The position numbers and the translations under genes were made by a program. The notes beneath the pieces are model-generated. The model did no database searches and was not told the origin of the DNA. It saw nothing but the letters and a program-made list of their open reading frames with translations. 64,000 nucleotides of DNA from Acidobacteriota bacterium. GTDB taxonomy: Bacteria; Acidobacteriota; Vicinamibacteria; Vicinamibacterales; 2-12-FULL-66-21. The DNA lies in NCBI GenBank assembly GCA_046731735.1, contig JBKPLP010000038.1, forward strand, positions 1,979 through 65,978, written 5' to 3'. Shown in pieces: positions 1,170 through 23,626 of this stretch. Position 1 is the first letter of the stretch. Each line of letters starts with the position of its first letter.

Positions 1170-1937
<768 letters not shown>

Positions 1938-1940
1938 CCG

Positions 1941-3641
1941 ATGCTCAGGATCCTTCGCGCGTTCGTGTGGCTGCGCTGGCGCATGCTGCTGAACTCGCTC
2001 GAGAAGACCGGCGCGCGCGACCGGCTGGAACGGTTCTCGCTCGCCATCGAGCGGCTCGGCCCGATCATGGCGGCGGTCTTCATGATTCCCTCCGTGCTCG
2101 CCCTCGCGGCAATCGCGAGCGCCGTCGGGTACGGCCTGGGCCGCGGCGATCAGCCGTCATTCCTCTTCGCCGCGATGCGCTACCTGCTGCTGTTCGTGCC
2201 GATTGCGAGTATCGTCGGACCACTGTTTCTTCCCGCAGCCGACCGCACCAATCCGGTCCGCCTGCTGCTCCTTCCGATCCCGAGGCGCACGCTCTATGCG
2301 GCGCAGGCGGCGACAGCGCTGGGTGACGTCTGGGTCGTGCTCATGCTCCCGATCGTACTGTTCCTTCCGATCGGCCTGGCCGCAGCCGGAGCGCTCGGCG
2401 CGGCGGTCATCGTGCTTGCGGCCGGCGTGATCTTTCTTGCGGTCGTCGTCGGCCTCTCGGCGCTCGCGACGAGCGTCCTGCATTTGATCGTCCGCGATCG
2501 CCGGCGTGGCGAGCTGCTCGCGCTGCTCTTCATTCTGATCATTCCCGCGGCGAGCATGCTCCCGGGACTGCTGCACGGCGGACGCCATCACCGCGGCGCT
2601 CAGCGCCAGCGTCCGGCGCCGGAGGAGATGCGCCTGCCCGGCTGGGCCACCGCGGCGGGCGAACGCGTATTCGCCGTCTACCCGAGCGAGTTGTATGTCC
2701 AGTCCGCGCGCGCAATGGCCGCGGGCGAGGTCCGAAGCGCGGCGATCCGGCTCGCAGCGCTCGCGGTTATCGCCGTCACGATGCATGCGGCCGGCATGTT
2801 CCTCTTTACGCGAATCCTCGACTCACCGGGCACGACCGGCGCGCGCCGGTCCGTCACCGCGCGCAAGGCGTGGGGGATGACGCTGCCAGGACTCACGCCG
2901 GGCGCATCCGCGGTGGCACTCGCGCAGCTGCGGCTCGCGCTCAGGACGCCGCGCGGCCGATCGATCCTGCTGACGCCGCTCGTGATCACGGGAGTGCTGG
3001 CGCTGGTAATGCGGCGTCACGGCAACCTCGATATCGGGCCGATCGGCTCGCATGGCGGTCTGGGGCTGGCGTCGTTCACGTCGTTCATCTCACTGCTGGC
3101 CACGCTCCACATTGCGGTGAATCAATTCGCAGTCGACAAAGCCGGGATGACGCTCATGCTGCTCTCGCCGTTGTCGGACCGCGAGTACCTCGCGGGCAAG
3201 GCGGTCGGCAACGCGCTCATCGGTCTGCCACCGGCGTTTATCTGCGTGATCGGTGTGGCGCTGCTCTTCCGGGACGGATCGCCGGCGCTGTGGTTGGCGG
3301 TTCCGCTTTCATTGATTGCGACCTACCTGTTGACCTCGGCCCCCTCGGCCATGCTGTCCGCGGTGTTCCCGCGGCTGGTCGATTTGAACAGCATCGGCCG
3401 ATCGAGCAACGCACACGGCCTCGCCGCGCTGCTGGGAATGCTCTCGTTCGTGGCCGCGGGCGCATCGAACCTGGCCATCGTGTTCGTTGCCAACTGGCTG
3501 GGACGGCCTGGACTGATGCCGATTCTGCTGGTCGGCTGGTGCGTGATCGCCTTCTGCATCAGCCGTCTGCTGTTTGCGATGGCGCGCCGCGTTTTCGCCG
3601 CCCGTCGCGAAAACCTGGCGCTGCTGCTGAGCGACAAGTAA
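1941..3641 (+). CDS. Multi-pass membrane protein, probable ABC-2-type permease
   Basis: 566 aa with many hydrophobic helices, starts 3 nt after the ATPase stop. Confidence 0.8.
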   Translation: MLRILRAFVWLRWRMLLNSLEKTGARDRLERFSLAIERLGPIMAAVFMIPSVLALAAIASAVGYGLGRGDQPSFLFAAMRYLLLFVPIASIVGPLFLPAADRTNPVRLLLLPIPRRTLYAAQAATALGDVWVVLMLPIVLFLPIGLAAAGALGAAVIVLAAGVIFLAVVVGLSALATSVLHLIVRDRRRGELLALLFILIIPAASMLPGLLHGGRHHRGAQRQRPAPEEMRLPGWATAAGERVFAVYPSELYVQSARAMAAGEVRSAAIRLAALAVIAVTMHAAGMFLFTRILDSPGTTGARRSVTARKAWGMTLPGLTPGASAVALAQLRLALRTPRGRSILLTPLVITGVLALVMRRHGNLDIGPIGSHGGLGLASFTSFISLLATLHIAVNQFAVDKAGMTLMLLSPLSDREYLAGKAVGNALIGLPPAFICVIGVALLFRDGSPALWLAVPLSLIATYLLTSAPSAMLSAVFPRLVDLNSIGRSSNAHGLAALLGMLSFVAAGASNLAIVFVANWLGRPGLMPILLVGWCVIAFCISRLLFAMARRVFAARRENLALLLSDK

Positions 3642-3730: not shown

Positions 3731-5248
3731 GTGCGGAAACCGACCTCATCGCTCAAGCGCCTGATGCGTGGAACGTTCGGATTGTCGGAGTTCCGCCCGG
3801 GACAGGAAGACGTCATCCGTTCGATCGTGCAGGGTCACGACACGATCGCGGTGATGCCGACAGGCGCGGGGAAGTCGCTCTGCTATCAGCTGCCCGCCTT
3901 GCACCTGCCGGGAACCACCATCGTAATCTCGCCGCTCATTTCGCTCATGAAAGATCAGTGCGACAAGCTGACCGAGCTCGGCACGTCCGCACGCCAGATC
4001 AACTCGACCATCGCTGACGCGGACGTGAAGGCAGCGCTCGAAGACATCCGCCGCGGTGACGTCGACTTCGTGTTTGCGACGCCGGAGCGGCTGGAAGATC
4101 CGACCTTCGTCGACACGCTGCGCGGAATCAAGATCGATCTCTTCGTCGTCGACGAGGCGCACTGCGTGTCGGAGTGGGGCCACGACTTCAGGCCGGCCTT
4201 CCTGGGACTGGGAGCGGCGGTCAAGGCGCTCGGCAAGCCATCCGTGCTGGCGCTGACGGCGACGGCAACCCCTGACGTCATCGACGACGTGGTACGACAG
4301 CTGGGACTGGAGAAGCCACAGCAGTTCAACCTCGGGCTTTACCGCGAGAACCTGCACTACGCAGTCCATCACACCGCCAGCGACAGCGCGAAGCAGCAGC
4401 GGCTGATCGCGATGCTGCGAAGCTGGCAAGGCAGCGGCATCGTCTACGTGGCCACGATCAAGCAGTGCGACACCGTCGTGCGGGTGCTCGAGGCGGAAGG
4501 GCTTGCGGTCGCGCGTTATCACGGCCGCCTATCGGGCAAATCCCGCCATGAAACCCAGGATCGCTTCATGGCTGGCGATCTTCCGACCATCGTTGCCACC
4601 AATGCGTTCGGTATGGGCATCGACAAGCCGGACATCCGCTTCGTGATCCACTACGACATGCCGGGGTCTATCGAGTCCTACTATCAGGAGTCCGGCCGTG
4701 CGGGGCGCGACGGAAACCCCGCCAGCTGCGCGCTCCTCTACCGGATCGAGGATCGACGCACGCACCAGTTTTTCATGGGCGGAAAGTACCCCGGCGCAGA
4801 CGACATCCTCGCGGTGCGGGACGCGCTCGCGGAGGTTGGGGCCTCAACGGCGCCAGTCTCCGTGGCACAGATCCAGACGCAAGCGACATCGGTGGCAAAG
4901 ACGAAGGTGCGGTCGGTTCTCTCGATGATGAAAGAACTCGGCCTGGTGAAAGAGCTGCGGGGGTCAAAGTATCGGCTCGCCAGCGAAACAGCCTCCACGG
5001 CCGCGATCGAAAACGTTGCGTCGCAGTACGCGGCGCGGTTGGACGCGGACCGCGAAAAGCTGCAGCGCATCGCGCTCTACGCGCAGAGCGCGCGCTGCCG
5101 CTGGAAAGAGCTCCTCGACTACTTCGGCGAAGGAGATAGCTTTGAAAGTTGCGGTACCTGCGACAATTGCACCCATCCGCCCGAACTCGAACATGCACCG
5201 CCAGTCGATCGCGATCGTATCGACTGGCCTCTAGCGACGAGCCGCTAG
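3731..5248 (+). CDS. recQ: RecQ-family ATP-dependent DNA helicase (frame open from 3689)
   Basis: MPTGAGKSLCYQ, DEAHCVSEWGHDFRP, ATNAFGMGIDK, YYQESGRAGRDG, Zn-binding CR...CGTCDNC. Confidence 0.93.
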   Translation: MRKPTSSLKRLMRGTFGLSEFRPGQEDVIRSIVQGHDTIAVMPTGAGKSLCYQLPALHLPGTTIVISPLISLMKDQCDKLTELGTSARQINSTIADADVKAALEDIRRGDVDFVFATPERLEDPTFVDTLRGIKIDLFVVDEAHCVSEWGHDFRPAFLGLGAAVKALGKPSVLALTATATPDVIDDVVRQLGLEKPQQFNLGLYRENLHYAVHHTASDSAKQQRLIAMLRSWQGSGIVYVATIKQCDTVVRVLEAEGLAVARYHGRLSGKSRHETQDRFMAGDLPTIVATNAFGMGIDKPDIRFVIHYDMPGSIESYYQESGRAGRDGNPASCALLYRIEDRRTHQFFMGGKYPGADDILAVRDALAEVGASTAPVSVAQIQTQATSVAKTKVRSVLSMMKELGLVKELRGSKYRLASETASTAAIENVASQYAARLDADREKLQRIALYAQSARCRWKELLDYFGEGDSFESCGTCDNCTHPPELEHAPPVDRDRIDWPLATSR

Positions 5249-5284
5249 CGCGTTGCCGCTCGCCGGCTGTCGAGGAAACGCGCA

Positions 5285-5402
5285 CGTACATGGCAGCACA
5301 GGGAGTGTCAAAGACTCTCCCTGCGCCCGGTGGCAGGTCTGTGTGGCGGATGGTTGCCCCAGCGGAACACCGGAGCGGCCGGGCCGCACCGCGTGCGGCA
5401 CC
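5285..5402 (-). ncRNA. Candidate sigma54-dependent sRNA, copy 1 (ends approximate)
   Basis: Hairpins GCCGCAC/GUGCGGC, GCUCCGG-UGUUCCG-CUGGGGC and GCAGGGAGAGUC-UUU-GACACUCCCUGU; paralogous to copy 2; downstream of a consensus -24/-12 motif. Confidence 0.6.
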
Positions 5403-5411
5403 CGCTTCAAG

Positions 5412-5427
5412 AGCAATGCGAGTGCCA
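5412..5427 (-). promoter_or_regulatory. sigma54 promoter for sRNA copy 1
   Basis: Minus strand TGGCAC-TCGCA-TTGCT, full consensus. Confidence 0.7.
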
Positions 5428-5475
5428 AGTTCGATCCTCGATTGTTGACCGAGGTTGTCGGCTGCAATCTACACA

Positions 5476-5517
5476 TCGACAATCAATGAGCAATCGAAAA
5501 TCGACAATCAAAGATTC
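5476..5517. repeat. Degenerate heptamer repeat (AATCGAC-like) between the two sRNA units
   Basis: tcgacaatcaatgagcaatcgaaaatcgacaatcaaagattc. Confidence 0.5.
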
Positions 5518-5527
5518 AGCAAAGTCG

Positions 5528-5651
5528 CGTACATGGCGGGGCAGGGAGTGCCTTTCGACTCTCCCTGCAGCCAGGCAGGCAATATTGGAAGGGCGGTTGC
5601 TCCAGCGGAACACCGGAGCGGCAAGCCGGGCCGCTGAAGCCGCCCGACACC
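5528..5651 (-). ncRNA. Candidate sigma54-dependent sRNA, copy 2 (ends approximate)
   Basis: Hairpins GUCGGGC/GCCCGGC, GCUCCGG-UGUUCCG-CUGGAGC and GCAGGGAGAGUC-GAAA-GGCACUCCCUGC (GNRA loop); 27/28 nt core shared with copy 1. Confidence 0.6.
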
Positions 5652-5660
5652 ATCTGTTAG

Positions 5661-5676
5661 AGCAACCGCGATGCCA
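5661..5676 (-). promoter_or_regulatory. sigma54 promoter for sRNA copy 2
   Basis: Minus strand TGGCAT-CGCGG-TTGCT. Confidence 0.7.
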
Positions 5677-5886
5677 TCGTTCGGTGGCAAAAACCGCCTG
5701 ATTTCGCGTGTTTTGCTGCCTCGGCGGCGGCCGGTGTGTGGCTGAGGTCTCAGGAGTGGAATCGACCGCCCCATGCGGCCCGCAGAGAGTAGGTAATGGG
5801 CTACACAAAGCTAAACTGTCGGCTTTTGGTTCCCGCTGTGTCTGAATTCCGCTTGTTCAGCGAAACCTGGTCCTGCGCGGAATCCG

Positions 5887-6834
5887 CTATAACTGCGTGC
5901 GCGGTGTCGGCGCGGCGGGAATCTCGTCGGGTCTTCGGCGGCGAAGTCTCGCGTTGGCGGCGGTGACTTCGACGCCGTACAGAAAAATCACAGCGCAGAT
6001 GTAAACCCAGACGAGGAACACGACCACGGCAGCGATCGAGCCGTGCACGCTGAAACGCGACAGGTCGCGTACATACCGCGAAAACCCGGCGAGCGCCATG
6101 CGCCAGAGCAGCCCGGTCAACACCGCTCCAACCCAGACATCGCGAAACCGCACCGCAGCGTTCGGAACGAAATAGAACACCAAGCCGACGAGCACGATGA
6201 AGATGACGGTGCTCGCAGACTTGAGCGCCCAGCCCTGGAGCACGAGCAGCCCCGGCGTGCGCGCGATGACGACCGCGAACCACCGCGCCTCGGCGACGTT
6301 GATCGCGCTCACGAGCAGCAGACCGAGGAGGAGGAGCAGGCTCGCCGTCACGAGCATCGTGAACGCCATCAGCTTGTGTTTCAGGTAGCTCGGCTGCTTG
6401 TCGACGCCCCAGGCGTGATTGACGGCAGATCCGATCGCGCTGAACACCCCCATCGCCGCCCAGACCATCAGGATGCTGCCGACGACGCCGAGCTTGAACC
6501 CCGCCTGCTGCATCGCCTGCAGCTGCGTGTTGACGAAATCGAATTGGCGCGGGAAGTAGTGCAACACGAAGCTGAGGACCGACGTGCGATCCGCGTCGTC
6601 GCTGGTGACGCTCGCCAGGATCGACAAGGCGAGCAGGAAAAACGGAAATAGCGAAAGCAACGCGTAATAGGCGATCGAGGACGCGAAGGTGAGGTCGTTG
6701 CTGTTGTAGATGCCGACGATGCCGCGCCACACCGCGAGCGCGGTCAAGTGGACTTCGGCGAGGCCGCGGAGATACGCGCGGCGGAGGACGGAGGACCGTG
6801 GCGGGGGCTGTGCCTGCGTCGCTTGCCCTGTCAC
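5887..6834 (-). CDS. YihY/virulence factor BrkB family membrane protein
   Basis: ASSIAYYALLSLFP, GSIAAVVVFLVWVYICAVIFLYGVE; multi-TM. Confidence 0.9.
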   Translation of the reverse strand: MTGQATQAQPPPRSSVLRRAYLRGLAEVHLTALAVWRGIVGIYNSNDLTFASSIAYYALLSLFPFFLLALSILASVTSDDADRTSVLSFVLHYFPRQFDFVNTQLQAMQQAGFKLGVVGSILMVWAAMGVFSAIGSAVNHAWGVDKQPSYLKHKLMAFTMLVTASLLLLLGLLLVSAINVAEARWFAVVIARTPGLLVLQGWALKSASTVIFIVLVGLVFYFVPNAAVRFRDVWVGAVLTGLLWRMALAGFSRYVRDLSRFSVHGSIAAVVVFLVWVYICAVIFLYGVEVTAANARLRRRRPDEIPAAPTPRTQL

Positions 6835-11338: not shown

Positions 11339-11378
11339 CACCCTGTACCCTGAGCCCTGTACCCTGAGCCCTGAGCCC
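11339..11378. repeat. Heptamer tandem repeat CCCTG(TA/AG), about 5-6 units
   Basis: ccctgtaccctgagccctgtaccctgagccctgagccct. Confidence 0.8.
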
Positions 11379-12781
11379 TATCCGACCGGCGCGGCGCGCC
11401 GTGCAGCCCCCTTGCCGCCATCCTGGATTTCGTGCTTCTTCATCTTGCTGTAGAGCGTCGGACGATAGAGACCCAGGATCTGCGCCGCTTCCTGCTTGTT
11501 CCAGTTCGTGCGCTGCAGGGTCTGCAAGATCGCCATCTTCTCGATCTCCGCCAGCGTCCGGTGCGGGGGAATCACGAATTCGGTCGTGGTGGCGGTCTCC
11601 GTGCGCAGTGATTCCGGCAGGTCGTTGACGGTGATCTCCGATCCCTTCGCGACGAGCACCCCGCGCTCGATGACATTCTCGAGCTCGCGCACGTTGCCTG
11701 GCCAGCGGTGGCGAATGAGCACATGGTAGGCCGCCGGCGCGATCGACTTGACGTTGCGCTGGTGCCGCTGACGATATTTCTCGAGGAAGTGCTCGCACAG
11801 GAGCGGGATGTCCTCGGTCCGCTCGCGCAGCGGCGGCACCCGCAGCGTGATCGTATTGATCCGGAAGTACAGGTCCTCTCGCAGCTTGCCGTCTCGAAGC
11901 GCCGCGTCGAGGTCGATGTTCGTGGCACAGATGAGCCTGAAGTCGACGCGAACAATCCGATCGCTGCCAATCGGGCGATATTCCCGTTCCTGCAGGACGC
12001 GCAGCAGCTTGGTCTGGAGGTAGGGCGGCATCTCCCCGATTTCGTCGAGGAGCAGCGAGCCCCCCTCGGACATCTCGAACAGCCCTTCCTTGTCCGACGC
12101 GGCACCCGTGAAGGCGCCTTTCTTATAGCCGAACAACTCCGACTCGATCAGATCCTTCGGGATCGCCGCGCAGTTGATCTTGATGAACGGTCCTTTGGCG
12201 CGCTTGCTGTTGTAGTGGAGCGCGTTCGCGATCAGCTCCTTGCCGGTGCCGTTTTCCCCCTGAATCAGGATGTTCGCGTCGCTCCCGGCGACGCTCTCCA
12301 CCAGCTCCAGCACTTCATGCATCTTCTTGCTCTTGCCGATGATGTTCCCGAACCGGAACTGCCCCTCGAGCTTTTGCTTCAGCAGAAGGTTTTCACCCAC
12401 CAGATCGCGGCGCTCGATGGCGCGCTCGAGCATCTGCAGGAGGGTATCCGGCTCGATCGGCTTTTCCACGAAGCTGTGGGCCCCTGCCTTCATCGCTTCA
12501 ACCGCTTTCACGACGCTCCCGTGCCCGGTGACGACGATGACCTCCGTATCCGCGTGGATCTGCTTGAATTTCCGGAGGAGTTCGAGCCCGTCCGCATCGG
12601 GCAGCATCATGTCCGTCACGACGACATCGGGCTTCCACGTCTTGAAGATGTCCTCGCCACGCGTTCCAATCATCGCAGTCCGGACCTCGTACCCCTCGTG
12701 TTCGAGGAGGATTTTGAGCCATTCGATCATCGACGGTTCATCGTCGATCGCGAGTACCCGGTTGCGCTTCTTCATCGTCAT
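11378..12781 (-). CDS. NtrC/AtoC-family sigma54-dependent response regulator (REC-AAA+-Fis HTH)
   Basis: REC domain, GENGTGKE, ESELFGYKKGAFTGA, WPGNVRELEN, NKQEAAQILGLYRPTLYSKM. Confidence 0.95.
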   Translation of the reverse strand: MTMKKRNRVLAIDDEPSMIEWLKILLEHEGYEVRTAMIGTRGEDIFKTWKPDVVVTDMMLPDADGLELLRKFKQIHADTEVIVVTGHGSVVKAVEAMKAGAHSFVEKPIEPDTLLQMLERAIERRDLVGENLLLKQKLEGQFRFGNIIGKSKKMHEVLELVESVAGSDANILIQGENGTGKELIANALHYNSKRAKGPFIKINCAAIPKDLIESELFGYKKGAFTGAASDKEGLFEMSEGGSLLLDEIGEMPPYLQTKLLRVLQEREYRPIGSDRIVRVDFRLICATNIDLDAALRDGKLREDLYFRINTITLRVPPLRERTEDIPLLCEHFLEKYRQRHQRNVKSIAPAAYHVLIRHRWPGNVRELENVIERGVLVAKGSEITVNDLPESLRTETATTTEFVIPPHRTLAEIEKMAILQTLQRTNWNKQEAAQILGLYRPTLYSKMKKHEIQDGGKGAARRAAPVG

Positions 12782-19507: not shown

Positions 19508-19690
19508 ATTCAGATCGGCATGAACGATTGCATCCGCCTCATCCGTCCGGTTCCGCGAGGTTTTCGACGGGCGGCGCCCCCTAGTTTTCGCAGTGCGCCG
19601 GTGTGTAACCAACGCCACACTCCCTCCCGGCAACGCTCCAGTTGCGGTGCCAAATGTCTGAATTGCAAAGGATTCGCCCCAAATACCGTC

Positions 19691-19706
19691 GGGCACCGCG
19701 ATTGCT
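19691..19706 (+). promoter_or_regulatory. Candidate sigma54 promoter of the L,D-transpeptidase gene
   Basis: GGGCAC-CGCGA-TTGCT, 14 nt before ATG 19721. Confidence 0.6.
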
Positions 19707-19720
19707 GTGGTAGCGGCGGG

Positions 19721-21481
19721 ATGTGGACCATTATGCGACGACTGACTCCGTGGGTTCTCTGCCTCGCGCTCGCTGCCGGGTGTGGCGGGATCAAAGCGAA
19801 CAGCGGCAAAGATACCGTGGGGACCTCCGGCCGCCGAGGCGCGATCGAAACGAACGTTCAGCAGATCGTGCGGGGCGGCAATCCACCCGACTACGTGACG
19901 CGCGATCCTGAAGGGGCGCGCCTCTGGAAACAGACGCGCGCATTCTACGAGAAGCGCAACTTCGAGCCGGCCTGGATCGACGAGGGGTCACCGCGCGGCC
20001 AGATGGACGCGCTCATCCGCGCAATTCATGCGGCTGACGATGAAGGTCTCGATCCCGAACTCTACAGTGCCAGCATGCTGGACGCGCAACTCCGGGAAGC
20101 GTCGAAAGGGTTTCTGACGAAAAAAGGGTTCAAGCCGGAAGAGGCCACGAAGATGGAAGTGTGGCTTACCTGGCTGTACATGAAGTACGCATCCGACCTG
20201 GCGGATGGCATCTCCGATCTCGCGCACTCGGACCCGAAGTGGCAAATCAAGCCGGAGGCGTTCGATGCGCTGGCGCATCTCGAGGGCGCACTTCGCGACA
20301 ACCGCATCGAGCAATCGCTCCAGGACCTGGTCCCGGCCAACCCAGAGTACGCGGCGCTGAAGAAGGCGCTCAAGGATTATCGCCAGATTGCGGCAAAGGG
20401 CGGATGGCCGCAGGTCCCGGGCCGGCCGACGGTGAAGATGAAACCAGGGCAGAGCAGCCCGATGGTGCCAGCCCTCGCTGCGCGGCTTGCCGCGACCGGC
20501 GACTATTCCGGCGCCGTTGCTCCCGCCGGCCAACCGGCGACGTTGAGTCCGGACCTTCACGAGGCCGTGAGGCGGTTCCAGCGGCGGCATGGGCTGGAGG
20601 ATGACGGAATCGTCGGCGCCCCGACGCTCGCCGAATTGAATGTGCCGGTCGATGCGCGGATTCATCAAATCGAACGCAATCTGGAGCGCTGGCGCTGGCT
20701 GCCGCACGATCTCGGTGAGCGCTACCTGCTCGTGAACATCCCGGAGATGCGCCTCGACGTCTGGGATCACGGTCAGGTGCCGCTTTCGATGAAAGTCGTG
20801 GTCGGCAAGCCTGACACGCAGACGCCGATCTTCAACGACGAGATGACGCACATCATCTTTTCGCCCTACTGGAACGTGCCACCGGATATCGCAGAGAAGG
20901 AAACGATGCCGTCGGTGATGCGCGATCCGGCGTTTCTCAGCCGGATGAACATGGAGGTCGTGGACGCGAACGGCAACTCCGTCGATCCCTCGTCGGTCGA
21001 CCTGTCGACGCCCGGCAACTACCGCTTTCGGCAGCGGCCAGGGACATCGAACGCGCTGGGACTCGTGAAGTTCATGTTCCCGAATCAGTTCGACGTGTAC
21101 CTGCACGACACGCCGGCCGACTCCCTGTTCGCGCGTGCCAGCCGCTCGTTCAGTCACGGGTGCGTGCGGGTCGAACAACCCGAGGAGCTAGCCCAATACG
21201 TCCTCCGGGATCAGCCCGAGTGGACGCGGGAGAAAATCGACGAAGCCATGCACGCCGGACAGGAGCAGACCGTCAAGCTCAAGGCGCCGATCCCCGTGTA
21301 TCTGGGTTACTGGACGGCTCGGGTGACACCGGACGGAGTCGTCCAGTTCAGGAAGGACGTCTACGGGATCGACGCGCGGCTGACGACGAGGCTGACCGAA
21401 CGTCTGCAGCGCATGCGGCAGAGCGCGGAGGCCGCCGCCACGACGGTACCGGCGCCGGCACCGCATGACCGGAAGAAATAG
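19721..21481 (+). CDS. YcbB/LdtD-like L,D-transpeptidase, probable lipoprotein (start 19721 or 19733)
   Basis: Lipobox LAAGC, PG-binding AVRRFQRRHGLEDDGIVG, YLHDTP...FSHGCVRV. Confidence 0.92.
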   Translation: MWTIMRRLTPWVLCLALAAGCGGIKANSGKDTVGTSGRRGAIETNVQQIVRGGNPPDYVTRDPEGARLWKQTRAFYEKRNFEPAWIDEGSPRGQMDALIRAIHAADDEGLDPELYSASMLDAQLREASKGFLTKKGFKPEEATKMEVWLTWLYMKYASDLADGISDLAHSDPKWQIKPEAFDALAHLEGALRDNRIEQSLQDLVPANPEYAALKKALKDYRQIAAKGGWPQVPGRPTVKMKPGQSSPMVPALAARLAATGDYSGAVAPAGQPATLSPDLHEAVRRFQRRHGLEDDGIVGAPTLAELNVPVDARIHQIERNLERWRWLPHDLGERYLLVNIPEMRLDVWDHGQVPLSMKVVVGKPDTQTPIFNDEMTHIIFSPYWNVPPDIAEKETMPSVMRDPAFLSRMNMEVVDANGNSVDPSSVDLSTPGNYRFRQRPGTSNALGLVKFMFPNQFDVYLHDTPADSLFARASRSFSHGCVRVEQPEELAQYVLRDQPEWTREKIDEAMHAGQEQTVKLKAPIPVYLGYWTARVTPDGVVQFRKDVYGIDARLTTRLTERLQRMRQSAEAAATTVPAPAPHDRKK

Positions 21482-21484
21482 CGG

Positions 21485-21859
21485 TCAGGCCGGCCGATCG
21501 TCGGGATGGCAGAACTGCGTCACGCAGCCGAGAAGCTCTTCGAGGTCGACCGGTTTCGAGAGATACGCATCGGCGTCGATTCGCTCGATTCGGTCGCGGC
21601 CGGCGGCCGACACCACGATGACGGGGATCTTCGCCAGATTCTCGTTCTTCACCTGCGCCTGACGGAATTGCCAGCCGTCCATGACCGGCATCATCAAATC
21701 GAGCAGGATCACGCAAGCGCGTGAGCCCCCGCCGAGCCGCTCGAGCGCCAGCTTGCCGTTCTCGGCGCTTTCGACTGTAAACCCTTCCAGTTCGAGGAAA
21801 CGCGCCAGCATCTCGCGCGTATCGAGATCGTCTTCCACGATGAAGACCGTTGGGCTCAC
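21485..21859 (-). CDS. Single-domain response regulator
   Basis: IVEDD...LLDLMMPVMDG...VSA...KP; GTG overlaps the upstream stop. Confidence 0.9.
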   Translation of the reverse strand: MSPTVFIVEDDLDTREMLARFLELEGFTVESAENGKLALERLGGGSRACVILLDLMMPVMDGWQFRQAQVKNENLAKIPVIVVSAAGRDRIERIDADAYLSKPVDLEELLGCVTQFCHPDDRPA

Positions 21860-22278
21860 GATCTCTCGCTCCGGCTGGCCGCCTCGCGAACCAGTTGGGT
21901 CGCAATATCGGCGAGCGCGTCGGGCATGCACGGCTTCTGCACAATCCGATCGCATCCCGCTGCGCGCGCCCGCTGCTCGTGCGCGGAACCGCCATATCCG
22001 CTGAGACAGACGATTGGAACCGCCCGAAGCGCCTCATCACTGCGGACTTCGGCCACGAGTTCCAATCCGTTCATGCCGGGGAGCGACAGGTCGGTGACCA
22101 CGATGTCGACACGCCGTTCGCGCAGAACTGCCAGTCCCTGTTCGGCATCGGCTGCCGCCACGACGTCGAACGATGTTTTGAGGAACTCGGCGTACATCTG
22201 CCGGCTGTCTTCGTGGTCTTCGACGAGCAGGAGGACGGAGGTCGGCTGCGGATCTGGCTTCGCGATTGCCGCGGGCAT
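21856..22278 (-). CDS. Single-domain response regulator
   Basis: LVEDH...VTDLSLPGMNG...LSG...KP. Confidence 0.9.
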   Translation of the reverse strand: MPAAIAKPDPQPTSVLLLVEDHEDSRQMYAEFLKTSFDVVAAADAEQGLAVLRERRVDIVVTDLSLPGMNGLELVAEVRSDEALRAVPIVCLSGYGGSAHEQRARAAGCDRIVQKPCMPDALADIATQLVREAASRSERS

Positions 22279-22700
22279 CACCGCCGCCTCGCGCGGCCGC
22301 GTCCGACTGCCGCCGCCTGTCTCTTGAGATACTTCGAGATTTCCTCGACAAGATCCGGCGGCAGGCACGGCTTCGCGATGAAGCCGTCACATCCGGCCAT
22401 TCTGGCCCGCTCGCCTTCCGTCGCGAGCGCGTGCGCACTCAGCGCGACGACCAGAATGTTTTTCGTCGCAGGATCGGATTTCAGGAGGCGGGTCGCTTCC
22501 CAGCCGTCGATGCCCGGAAGCGAGAGATCCATCAGCACGAGATCGGGGCGCAGCCGGCGCGCCTTCTCGATCGCTTCACGCCCATCGCGGGCCGTCTCCA
22601 CGCGGAACGCCGCGAACTCCAGATAGTCGCGATACATCTCGCGCGCGTCGTCAAAATCCTCGACGATGAGAATCAACGGCGCGAGCGAGGGCACGGACAT
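22278..22700 (-). CDS. Single-domain response regulator (DivK-like)
   Basis: IVEDF...LMDLSLPGIDGWEATRLLK...LSAHA...GCDGFIAKP. Confidence 0.9.
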   Translation of the reverse strand: MSVPSLAPLILIVEDFDDAREMYRDYLEFAAFRVETARDGREAIEKARRLRPDLVLMDLSLPGIDGWEATRLLKSDPATKNILVVALSAHALATEGERARMAGCDGFIAKPCLPPDLVEEISKYLKRQAAAVGRGRARRR

Positions 22701-22750
22701 GCGATAAAACTCTCTCCTGAGCGGACAGCGGGGATGGACAGTGAAGGTTG

Positions 22751-23152
22751 CTACATCGGACGCGAGCGTTCGCGAATCAGGCTGCGGATTGCGGTTTCCA
22801 GATCGCCAGGAGAACAGGGCTTGGGGAGCACCGCTTCGATACCAGCACGCCGTGCGCGGTCCGGGTCGGCGGCAAACGCCGCGTAACCAGTCACCGCGAG
22901 CACCGGGATATCACGCGTGCGCGGATCCTGCTTCAGGCGGCGGGTCAACTCGAACCCGTCGATTCCTGGAATATTCAAGTCTGTGACGACCACGTCTGGC
23001 AGACTATCGACCGCTCGCTCGAGCGCCTGTAGTCCGTTGTGCGCCTGCGACACACGAAAACCTGCGCCCGTCAGCCAATCGGCGTACATACGGCGACCGT
23101 CCTGGTCGTCCTCCACGAGCAGCACGGTCGGGCCGCTATCACCTGAGGGCAT
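22751..23152 (-). CDS. Single-domain response regulator
   Basis: LVEDD...VTDLNIPGIDG...VTG...KP. Confidence 0.9.
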   Translation of the reverse strand: MPSGDSGPTVLLVEDDQDGRRMYADWLTGAGFRVSQAHNGLQALERAVDSLPDVVVTDLNIPGIDGFELTRRLKQDPRTRDIPVLAVTGYAAFAADPDRARRAGIEAVLPKPCSPGDLETAIRSLIRERSRPM

Positions 23153-23245
23153 TCAGGTCCTCTGCCCTTAAGTATAGCTGGCACCGCGAGGCGAATCAGG
23201 ACCGAGTCGAAATCTGCCTGACTGCGCCCACGTATTCGGATGAGC

Positions 23246-23626
23246 TTACGCCGGTATCTTCAGCACCTGTCCCGGTTTGATCAGGTCCGGGTTCTTGAGC
23301 TGGTCGCGATTCGCTTCGTAGATCTTCATGTAAGCGTTCGCGTCTCCGAAATACTCCTTTGCAATCTTGCTGAGCGTATCGCCTGACTTCACCGTGTAAG
23401 TTTTGGCAGACGCCGCCGCTGCGCCGCCTCCCGTGACATTGATGTCGGCGACGACCTCGTTGCGCCACTCCGGAATGGTCTTGATCGCGGTCCAGATCTC
23501 GTTCTTTTCCTGCTCCGACTTCACCGAACCCACGAAATGCAGCTTCCCGTCCTTCTCCTGGGCGCTGCCGTCGAATTTGCCCTTTGCCGTCGAAATGGCA
23601 TAGGCGTACTTTTCTCGCAATCCCAT
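23246..23626 (-). CDS. LysM-domain protein (Kbp/YgaU-like, BON-like N-terminus)
   Basis: YTVKSGDTLSKIAKEYFGDANAYMKIYEANRDQLKNPDLIKPGQVLKIP; GGAGG RBS. Confidence 0.92.
   Translation of the reverse strand: MGLREKYAYAISTAKGKFDGSAQEKDGKLHFVGSVKSEQEKNEIWTAIKTIPEWRNEVVADINVTGGGAAAASAKTYTVKSGDTLSKIAKEYFGDANAYMKIYEANRDQLKNPDLIKPGQVLKIPA

Follow-up and report, generated by a model that had tools for sequence, protein, structure and literature searches.

Stand-alone sRNAs that depend on sigma54 and a bEBP and that occur as paralogs are represented by Qrr1-5 of Vibrio and CrcZ/CrcY of Pseudomonas. Two further systems resemble in design the sRNA described in this work, which is a member of neither. Pxr of Myxococcus (RF01812) is an sRNA of about 110 nt with three stem-loops and a predicted sigma54 promoter (PMC5684412, PMC5568312, PMC11928866). 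GlmY and GlmZ of Enterobacteriaceae are a homologous sRNA pair under the control of sigma54 and the two-component bEBP GlrR (QseF), whose sites, TGTC-N10-GACA, have the same TGT-N12-ACA spacing as the enhancer reported below (PMC3045617). From Acidobacteria, the Acido-1 and Acido-Lenti-1 motifs (RF01686, RF01687) are available as candidate ncRNAs (PMC2864571). No regulatory RNA of Vicinamibacterales was found described in the literature searched, and no title or abstract opening, mostly outside subscription journals and screen supplements, described the present RNA; a term search of one preprint (bioRxiv 10.64898/2026.09.15.751765) gave no occurrence.

The likeness to Pxr also covers an SL3 that varies apart from a conserved 8-bp core, an NtrC-like regulator encoded nearby, tandem paralogs each with its own promoter, and processed forms. 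There are differences as well: the Pxr SL3, as read from published primers, is a different GC stem followed by a U-tract, whereas only 7 of 68 family rows have a U-tract here; SL1 is conserved and essential in Pxr but variable or absent here; pxrR is adjacent to Pxr, while the candidate regulator lies 2-10 kb away; and myxobacteria are without Hfq, which is encoded in the present genome. Searched with the Pxr covariance model, neither the genome nor the locus yielded a match at E<=10. GlmY/GlmZ share a link to cell-wall metabolism, and a RapZ-like gene is encoded here; the differences are that their Rfam models did not match, that the bEBP scores 394 bits against a GlrR cut-off of 763, and that the sRNA pair is not conserved. 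The Qrr and CrcZ models did not match either, most members of the present family lack a U-tract terminator, the long AAN repeats known from CrcZ are absent, and the bEBP remains below the LuxO cut-off (361 vs 800 bits). Neither Acido-1 nor Acido-Lenti-1 matched the locus (E<=10) or any of 12 homolog loci (E<=5).

Two related units between recQ and yihY

The genome analyzed (GCA_046731735.1, a 3.63-Mb assembly, 84% complete) belongs to the family 2-12-FULL-66-21 of Vicinamibacterales, referred to as the host family, of which 112 genomes were surveyed. All positions refer to the window, i.e. the whole 64,000-nt stretch of contig JBKPLP010000038.1 that was studied. The gap between the stops of recQ (plus strand, 5248) and yihY (minus strand, 5887) is 638 nt long and contains two minus-strand units of 149 nt (5528-5676, copy A) and 143 nt (5285-5427, copy B), in agreement with the first-pass annotation, which had placed two units of ~145 bp in a gap of ~640 bp. 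The minus-strand -24/-12 motifs, a core with 27 of 28 bases identical (5352-5379 in B, 5595-5622 in A), the 3' hairpin, the GAAA loop and the common GCCATGTACG tail were all found as it had described them. Both units open with TGGCAY-N5-TTGCT. The similarity of the two copies is beyond chance (blastn E about 2e-10), their predicted RNAs are 66% identical, and blastn revealed no third copy in the 3.63-Mb genome, the total being two. The features are collected in Table 1.

Table 1. Positions of the sRNA units, their control elements and associated genes in the window
Feature	Position	Strand	Remarks
Palindromic enhancer, likely bEBP site	5789..5808	.	consensus GTG(T/G)GTA-N6-TAC(A/C)CAC; centre 122 nt upstream of promoter A
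sigma54 -24/-12 promoter, copy A	5661..5676	-	predicted +1 = G5650
sRNA copy A	5533..5650	-	predicted 118 nt; 5' end inferred from promoter spacing
SL1, variable 5' hairpin	5625..5648	-	missing from some homologs
SL2, 8-bp stem, 5-nt loop (R-Y-U-C-H)	5599..5619	-	
Unpaired C/A-rich linker	5573..5598	-	ends in conserved CCYRCC box 5574-5579
SL3, near-invariant CAGGGAG/CUCCCUG core and 3-bp outer helix	5535..5572	-	
AUGUAC motif	5529..5534	-	tailed RNA stops after AU (5533)
sigma54 promoter, copy B	5412..5427	-	predicted +1 = G5401; without full enhancer (score 2.6)
sRNA copy B	5290..5401	-	predicted 112 nt; diverged duplicate of A
NtrC-type sigma54 activator, candidate enhancer-binding protein	11378..12781	-	inferred
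Enhancer, second copy	19601..19620	.	upstream of L,D-transpeptidase gene
sigma54-type promoter (19691) and LdtD/YcbB-like L,D-transpeptidase gene	19691..21481	+	ORF from about 19733

The minus-strand orientation, originally deduced from G-U wobbles, was borne out family-wide by 256 G-U against 7 A-C cells in an alignment fitted to the model. Folding gave z values of -3.2 for the minus and -0.6 for the plus strand of copy A, and copy B showed no strand preference (-1.8 vs -2.0). The units appear to be free of a coding frame, as had been proposed, since anchor distances across the family fall in all three frames; a small ORF starting from a conserved ATG was rejected because reading frames are not preserved among homologs. 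Rfam 15 gave no match to either unit at E<=10 and none to 12 homolog loci at E<=5, so this check turned up no known family. ARAGORN reported nothing over the window, tests for tRNA, tmRNA and 6S RNA (model match; long hairpin or cloverleaf) were negative at the sRNA units, 6S RNA had no match anywhere in the genome, and neither a sigma70 promoter nor an intrinsic terminator was found in 5200-5950. Between the units (5475-5514) the sequence ATCGACAATCAA is present twice, and unrelated contigs in four runs match it too; one of its copies resembles an IHF site.

Transcript of copy A

Four soil RNA-seq runs of one study (X1-X4, as contigs) were compared with positions 4800-6200. X1, X2 and X3 each contained one piece covering exactly 5533-5639 of copy A at a depth of 4-6, identical to it at 107/107 positions in X1 and X2 and with one change and one gap in X3. 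Copy A RNA was not seen in X4, nor copy B RNA in any of the four runs, an absence which, like that on the flanks, proves nothing alone. Beyond 5533 the three pieces continue into three unlike sequences, T-rich on the plus strand and absent from the DNA; the 90 tail letters shown comprise, by manual count, 56 A, 20 G, 8 C and 6 U (about 62% A, 22% G). Three different continuations from a single base cannot come from the DNA, so the pieces represent minus-strand RNA whose 3' end follows GCCAU. A discrete non-coding minus-strand transcript of copy A was seen in three of the four runs. The minus-strand transcripts foreseen for both units were thus observed, with tails, for copy A and not for copy B in X1-X4, and GUACG, previously counted as part of the RNA, does not belong to the tailed RNA, in which the tails begin after 5533.

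In X2 adapter sequence adjoins 5639 directly, which marks this position as the end of a fragment; it lies 11 nt downstream of the predicted +1. Such an end fits processing as well as ordinary cDNA shortening, a 5' loss of 11 nt being typical of cDNA second-strand synthesis. The RNA evidence consists of three low-depth contigs from one study, possibly one molecule each, and the tailed molecules may be decay intermediates. PNPase is encoded in the genome and is listed as a producer of heteropolymeric tails in Table 1 of PMC6181284. Runs X5 and X6 of another study, with the library type unrecorded, behave like DNA: a contig of X6 spans 5639, a second extends 11 matching bases beyond 5533 with no tail, and one covers copy B. 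One X6 contig (record 12) joins a copy-B-like 3' end (5285-5329) to yihY-end sequence (5893-5920) on the opposite strand and is, judging from this junction, a relative with a convergent arrangement.

Structure and conservation of the RNA

In the MAFFT alignment 93.1% of the cells were paired, compared with 90.1 after shuffling, and double changes numbered 25 vs 8.2. Double changes fell on 8 pairs, against 5.4 after shuffling, which is not significant (42/500). In the model-fitted alignment of 79 rows, which is lenient because of the fitting, 23 of 28 pairs had double changes. Two homologs with an SL1 longer by 30-60 nt (L002:1384-1593 and L013:1413-1596) were left out of alignment A2 and included in A3; they show that SL1 accommodates large insertions. 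SL1 starts 12-13 nt past the C of the -12 element in 67/68 rows. The loop word UGUUCCG of SL2, described earlier as invariant and as a possible seed, is present in only 37/68 family rows (GUUCC in 54) and changes outside the family, a result that does not favour an invariant seed; as its first and last bases pair, a 5-nt loop remains. The linker, 28 +/- 2 nt long with 47% C and 11% G, is unpaired in the predicted fold of copy A and carries the CCYRCC box in 62/68 rows. The CAGGGAG/CUCCCUG core of SL3 is intact in 66/68 rows and is followed by GUAC in 53/68 and by a U-tract in 7/68; the median predicted length is 119 nt. Within the host family the paired stem sequences are nearly invariant.

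Two alternative pairings were rejected: a helix CCUGCC:GCAGG, broken by a frequent A variant (CCUACC in 16/78 rows), and pairing of the linker with the -11..-1 promoter region, which equalled that with permuted partners (z -0.06, 42 rows). Of the eight windows tested for linker pairing a single one, +1..+5, was conspicuous (z -2.8, without correction and with kin that are not independent); no weight is placed on it here.

In a held-out test, 68 metagenome loci picked by a 25-nt core alone gave 63 distinct matches. The -24/-12 promoter was present in all 62 copies with enough flank, with a short promoter-core spacing in 8 of them. The strict SL3 pattern was found in 54/58 copies, the remaining four having the stem with a variant outer helix; among the 54, the CCYRCC box was present in 52 and the GUAC tail in 36. 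The expectation that homologs keep the stems and the promoter was therefore upheld by the covarying stems and by the strict promoter in 65/68 family rows and 62/62 held-out copies.

Distribution and copy number

A 22-nt core pattern (<=2 mismatches) was found in 59/112 host-family genomes, the reversed control giving 0, and exact core matches in public records came from Acidobacteriota / Vicinamibacterales, one of them (L032) identical to the family locus L012. The covariance model, built from 42 copies and applied to genomes many of which had supplied training rows, matched 101/112 host-family genomes at E<=0.01. Only matches at E<1e-15 were counted as members because the weaker ones fell on pilA promoters or on members of a second paralog type, and two loci matching a 21-mer only, without SL3 (L033, L040), were excluded. 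Members defined in this way occur in 96/112 host-family genomes and 53/55 high-quality ones (manual count), usually as one copy. The tallies of the sRNA (96/112), the regulator (94/112) and the ldtD orthologs include the unpublished-marked genomes G021, G044, G074 and G077, which were left out of the synteny count, alignments and trees. In the order sample, a broader model (E<=0.001) matched 11/11 host-family genomes and 16/140 others; the copies in families f12, f13, f15 and f16 show compensatory changes and still have the promoter, SL2, the box and SL3, and three of these loci adjoin yihY. In the class sample 8/151 genomes matched, the sole match outside the order being weak and partial, and viral contigs gave 0 matches. 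The lack of an Rfam match, the presence in 96/112 host-family genomes and the conserved stems and promoter agree with the original proposal of an undescribed sRNA family.

Two strong copies were present in 11/96 genomes, 7 head-to-tail, 2 convergent and 2 unlinked. The tandem pair is thus not a trait of the family, as the first reading had implied, but a local duplication, with adjacent copies in just 9/96 genomes. In a low-resolution tree, copy A groups with its genus orthologs on a short branch, copy B has a long, unresolved branch, and the second copies of three other genomes (G049, G062, G085) are placed near their own genus, which suggests repeated duplication. Copy A is the conserved ortholog and copy B a local, faster-evolving duplicate.

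At 70 loci the two nearest ORFs on each side encoded YihY (36 times), an ECF sigma factor (30), DUF6249 (26), a FAD/Rieske oxidoreductase (18) and RecQ (13). The neighbours occur in mixed orientations, which points to a stand-alone sRNA gene bordering a cluster of the stress type.

Promoter, enhancer and likely co-regulated genes

The strict motif TGGCA[CT]-N5-TTGC[AT] occurs 8 times in the genome, two of the occurrences being the promoters of A and B, and rpoN is present. A motif search in 57 upstream regions revealed a palindrome (width 18) with an EM log-likelihood of 207, compared with 29-36 on three shuffles. Measured upstream from the promoter, its sites concentrate near 59, 91 and 122 nt, at intervals of about three helical turns. 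In the held-out set it was found at 37/49 first-or-only copies, 3/8 downstream copies and 3/44 control regions. The palindrome at 5789-5808 is likely to be a bEBP site. Copy B may use the enhancer of A or be weakly expressed.

Among 67 promoter-like sites in the genome the enhancer accompanies three: copy A (a training row), the ldtD-like gene at 19691 and a gene on contig C146. The ldtD orthologs have it at 23/28 loci (30 loci, of which 2 were too short), mostly 78-81 nt upstream, and coding controls at 3/28. Co-regulation of the sRNA and the L,D-transpeptidase is likely in view of this shared element. The third enhancer-bearing promoter (G000:C146:11480-12310, L162) precedes a gene whose 224-aa product is Lys-rich at its N-terminus, probably includes a membrane segment and was assigned to no Pfam family. 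The region 21488-23626, which adjoins ldtD, holds on the opposite strand a LysM gene and four genes for stand-alone receiver domains; taken with ytxH and yihY, these genes point to a stress cluster. LdtD of E. coli is reportedly induced by envelope stress. The envelope-stress reading comes from one co-regulated gene and from the neighbours.

Candidate activator

The NtrC-type regulator reached no equivalog cut-off among the 25 best NCBIfam models. It was found in 94/112 host-family genomes with 80-98% identity, mostly above 90. Among 85 genomes with both genes, it lies within 10.5 kb of the sRNA in 70, far away in 1 and on another contig in 14. In other families it neighbours yihY at 20/20 loci, 19 of which are without the sRNA in the 13-20 kb fetched, so the linkage of regulator and sRNA follows an older yihY cluster. 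The families f12, f13 and f16 carry the RNA and have no regulator match at E<=1e-150, and the 8 diverged copies outside the host family have enhancer scores below 5. The genome encodes about 18 activator-like proteins (19 motif matches, at least one of them false). Within the host family the regulator is a plausible and the best activator candidate, the link being circumstantial.

Several observations concern the regulator itself. The identity of 90-98% across most family genera is unusually high, no kinase gene adjoins it, and TACAC half-sites are found upstream. Single in-frame stops interrupt three matches, TGA in G114:C10 and G132:C7 (both family f4) and TAG in G119:C22.

Second paralog type and pilin leaders

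A second paralog type was found at unlinked loci (L163:1481-1599, L164-L167, L171, L172, L092:1501-1629, L141). It comprises a sigma54 promoter, a hairpin with a GCUCU/ACUCU loop, a C/A-rich linker and a 3' stem of the form GACGGG..CCCG, in most cases with the AUGUAC tail of the first type; it has no type-I enhancer and no Rfam match. A search of the genome with its profile placed copies A and B at the top (E 0.014 and 1), a result to which the promoter contributed in part. Type IV pilin genes (L168-L170, L174-L177, about 1470-1625; G000:C204, about 1850-1961, minus strand) also have a sigma54 promoter, followed by a conserved structured leader opening with GCGUCGGCCGCUGG. On visual inspection this leader could adopt either of two folds that exclude each other; it has no Rfam match.

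Mode of action

That the locus encodes a real sRNA is almost certain. In the preferred model a response regulator would bind the palindromic enhancer and enable the sigma54 polymerase to transcribe the sRNA from G5650; the activator would be the bEBP of Table 1, acting in a cell-envelope or stress response. The 3' end would result from processing or trimming between AU and GUAC, not from a U-tract terminator, and SL3 would form a 3' shield at which PNPase stalls and then adds tails. The unpaired C-rich linker would be the putative site of pairing with G-rich leaders, leading to mRNA repression. We give about an even chance to this reading as a whole, i.e. a minus-strand sRNA, likely driven by sigma54 and the enhancer, that most likely represses mRNAs through its linker. 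Pairing with mRNA is preferred because it is the usual job of such RNAs, because Hfq is encoded in the genome and because the CCYRCC variants pair with one G-rich word: CCUGCC, CCUACC, CCCGCC and CCCACC could all pair with GGUGGG through wobble. Against it, the Hfq-binding 3' U-tract is rare, and conservation of the linker concerns its composition and the repetition of YRCC words more than any one seed; Y/R changes, which account for the box variants, are also the commonest mutations. In a scan of 2983 start regions the best linker duplexes did not exceed those of 4 shuffled linkers per copy, and ldtD leaders showed no preference for the cognate linker (z -1.0, 23 pairs; low power). The ldtD and rpoN genes were rejected as targets: they came 54th and 67th among the 2983 regions, with copy A alone and via variable linker positions, and their duplexes dropped to -6.5 and -8.5 kcal/mol once accessibility was included.

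A sigma54-driven RNA could instead be a protein decoy, like GlmY, CrcZ or CsrB, in which the RCC words and the SL2 loop titrate an RNA-binding protein. This is possible but rather doubtful, and it is kept in consideration because no target rose above the controls, the YRCC words are repeated and a second paralog type exists. Although kin are not independent, YRCC words number 214 vs 103 +/- 8 after shuffling in 78 linkers, and 101 vs 58 +/- 6 with the box left out; RCC stands just 5' of SL2 in 62/78 rows. The near-invariance of the paired stems, the RapZ-like gene in the rpoN operon and the second paralog type, which combines the same architecture and a similar loop with a C/A-rich linker of other sequence, point the same way. 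In the CsrB/RsmZ test, on the contrary, GGA loops were absent and CsrA was not found in the 84% complete genome; the missing AAN run and GlmY/GlmZ match, the mostly single copy and the lack of an identified partner also speak against a decoy. A more elaborate form of it, in which the RNA would be the arm of a sigma54 envelope-stress circuit, a multivalent decoy for a protein reading RCC words and the RYUCH pentaloop, a Csr-like switch with new chemistry, cut between AU and GUAC and with a second mobile paralog feeding the same protein, is unlikely. Still less probable is a sigma54 sRNA acting otherwise, as an sRNA sponge or a fragment from inside SL1 (like Pxr-S), or answering to another activator. 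All three RNA pieces begin at 5639 and SL1 is dispensable in some homologs, but the same 11-nt loss is usual in cDNA synthesis; many other activators are encoded, and f12, f13 and f16 have the RNA without a close bEBP match or enhancer, but in the host family the bEBP lies within 10.5 kb of the sRNA in 70/71 same-contig cases. The least credible reading, already largely refuted, takes the sRNA for a dispersed repeat/MITE or for a cis element that serves a neighbour as leader or 3' UTR. The sRNA often lies at the 3' end of yihY and duplicates arise repeatedly; on the other hand, its own promoter accompanies all 62 held-out copies, it stands in either orientation to its neighbours, its RNA is discrete and tailed, viral contigs lack it, and two copies in 3.63 Mb, mostly one per genome, do not fit the REP/MITE that had been named as an alternative.

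Significance

Vicinamibacterales are common soil bacteria known mostly from metagenome bins. The sRNA family, apparently undescribed and of a known kind, is near-universal in the host family and arrives with a promoter, an enhancer, a cell-wall gene, a candidate activator and in-situ RNA. What is new here is the enhancer that the promoters of the sRNA and the L,D-transpeptidase share. As the promoter, enhancer, co-regulated gene, candidate activator and mapped 3' end are known, each step of the preferred model is directly testable. The design of Pxr and GlmY, with sigma54, a response regulator, three hairpins, a protected 3' stem and repeated duplication, is now represented in a third phylum, in a case without detectable sequence homology to either, and the sRNA provides a marker for one signalling state in soil metatranscriptomes.
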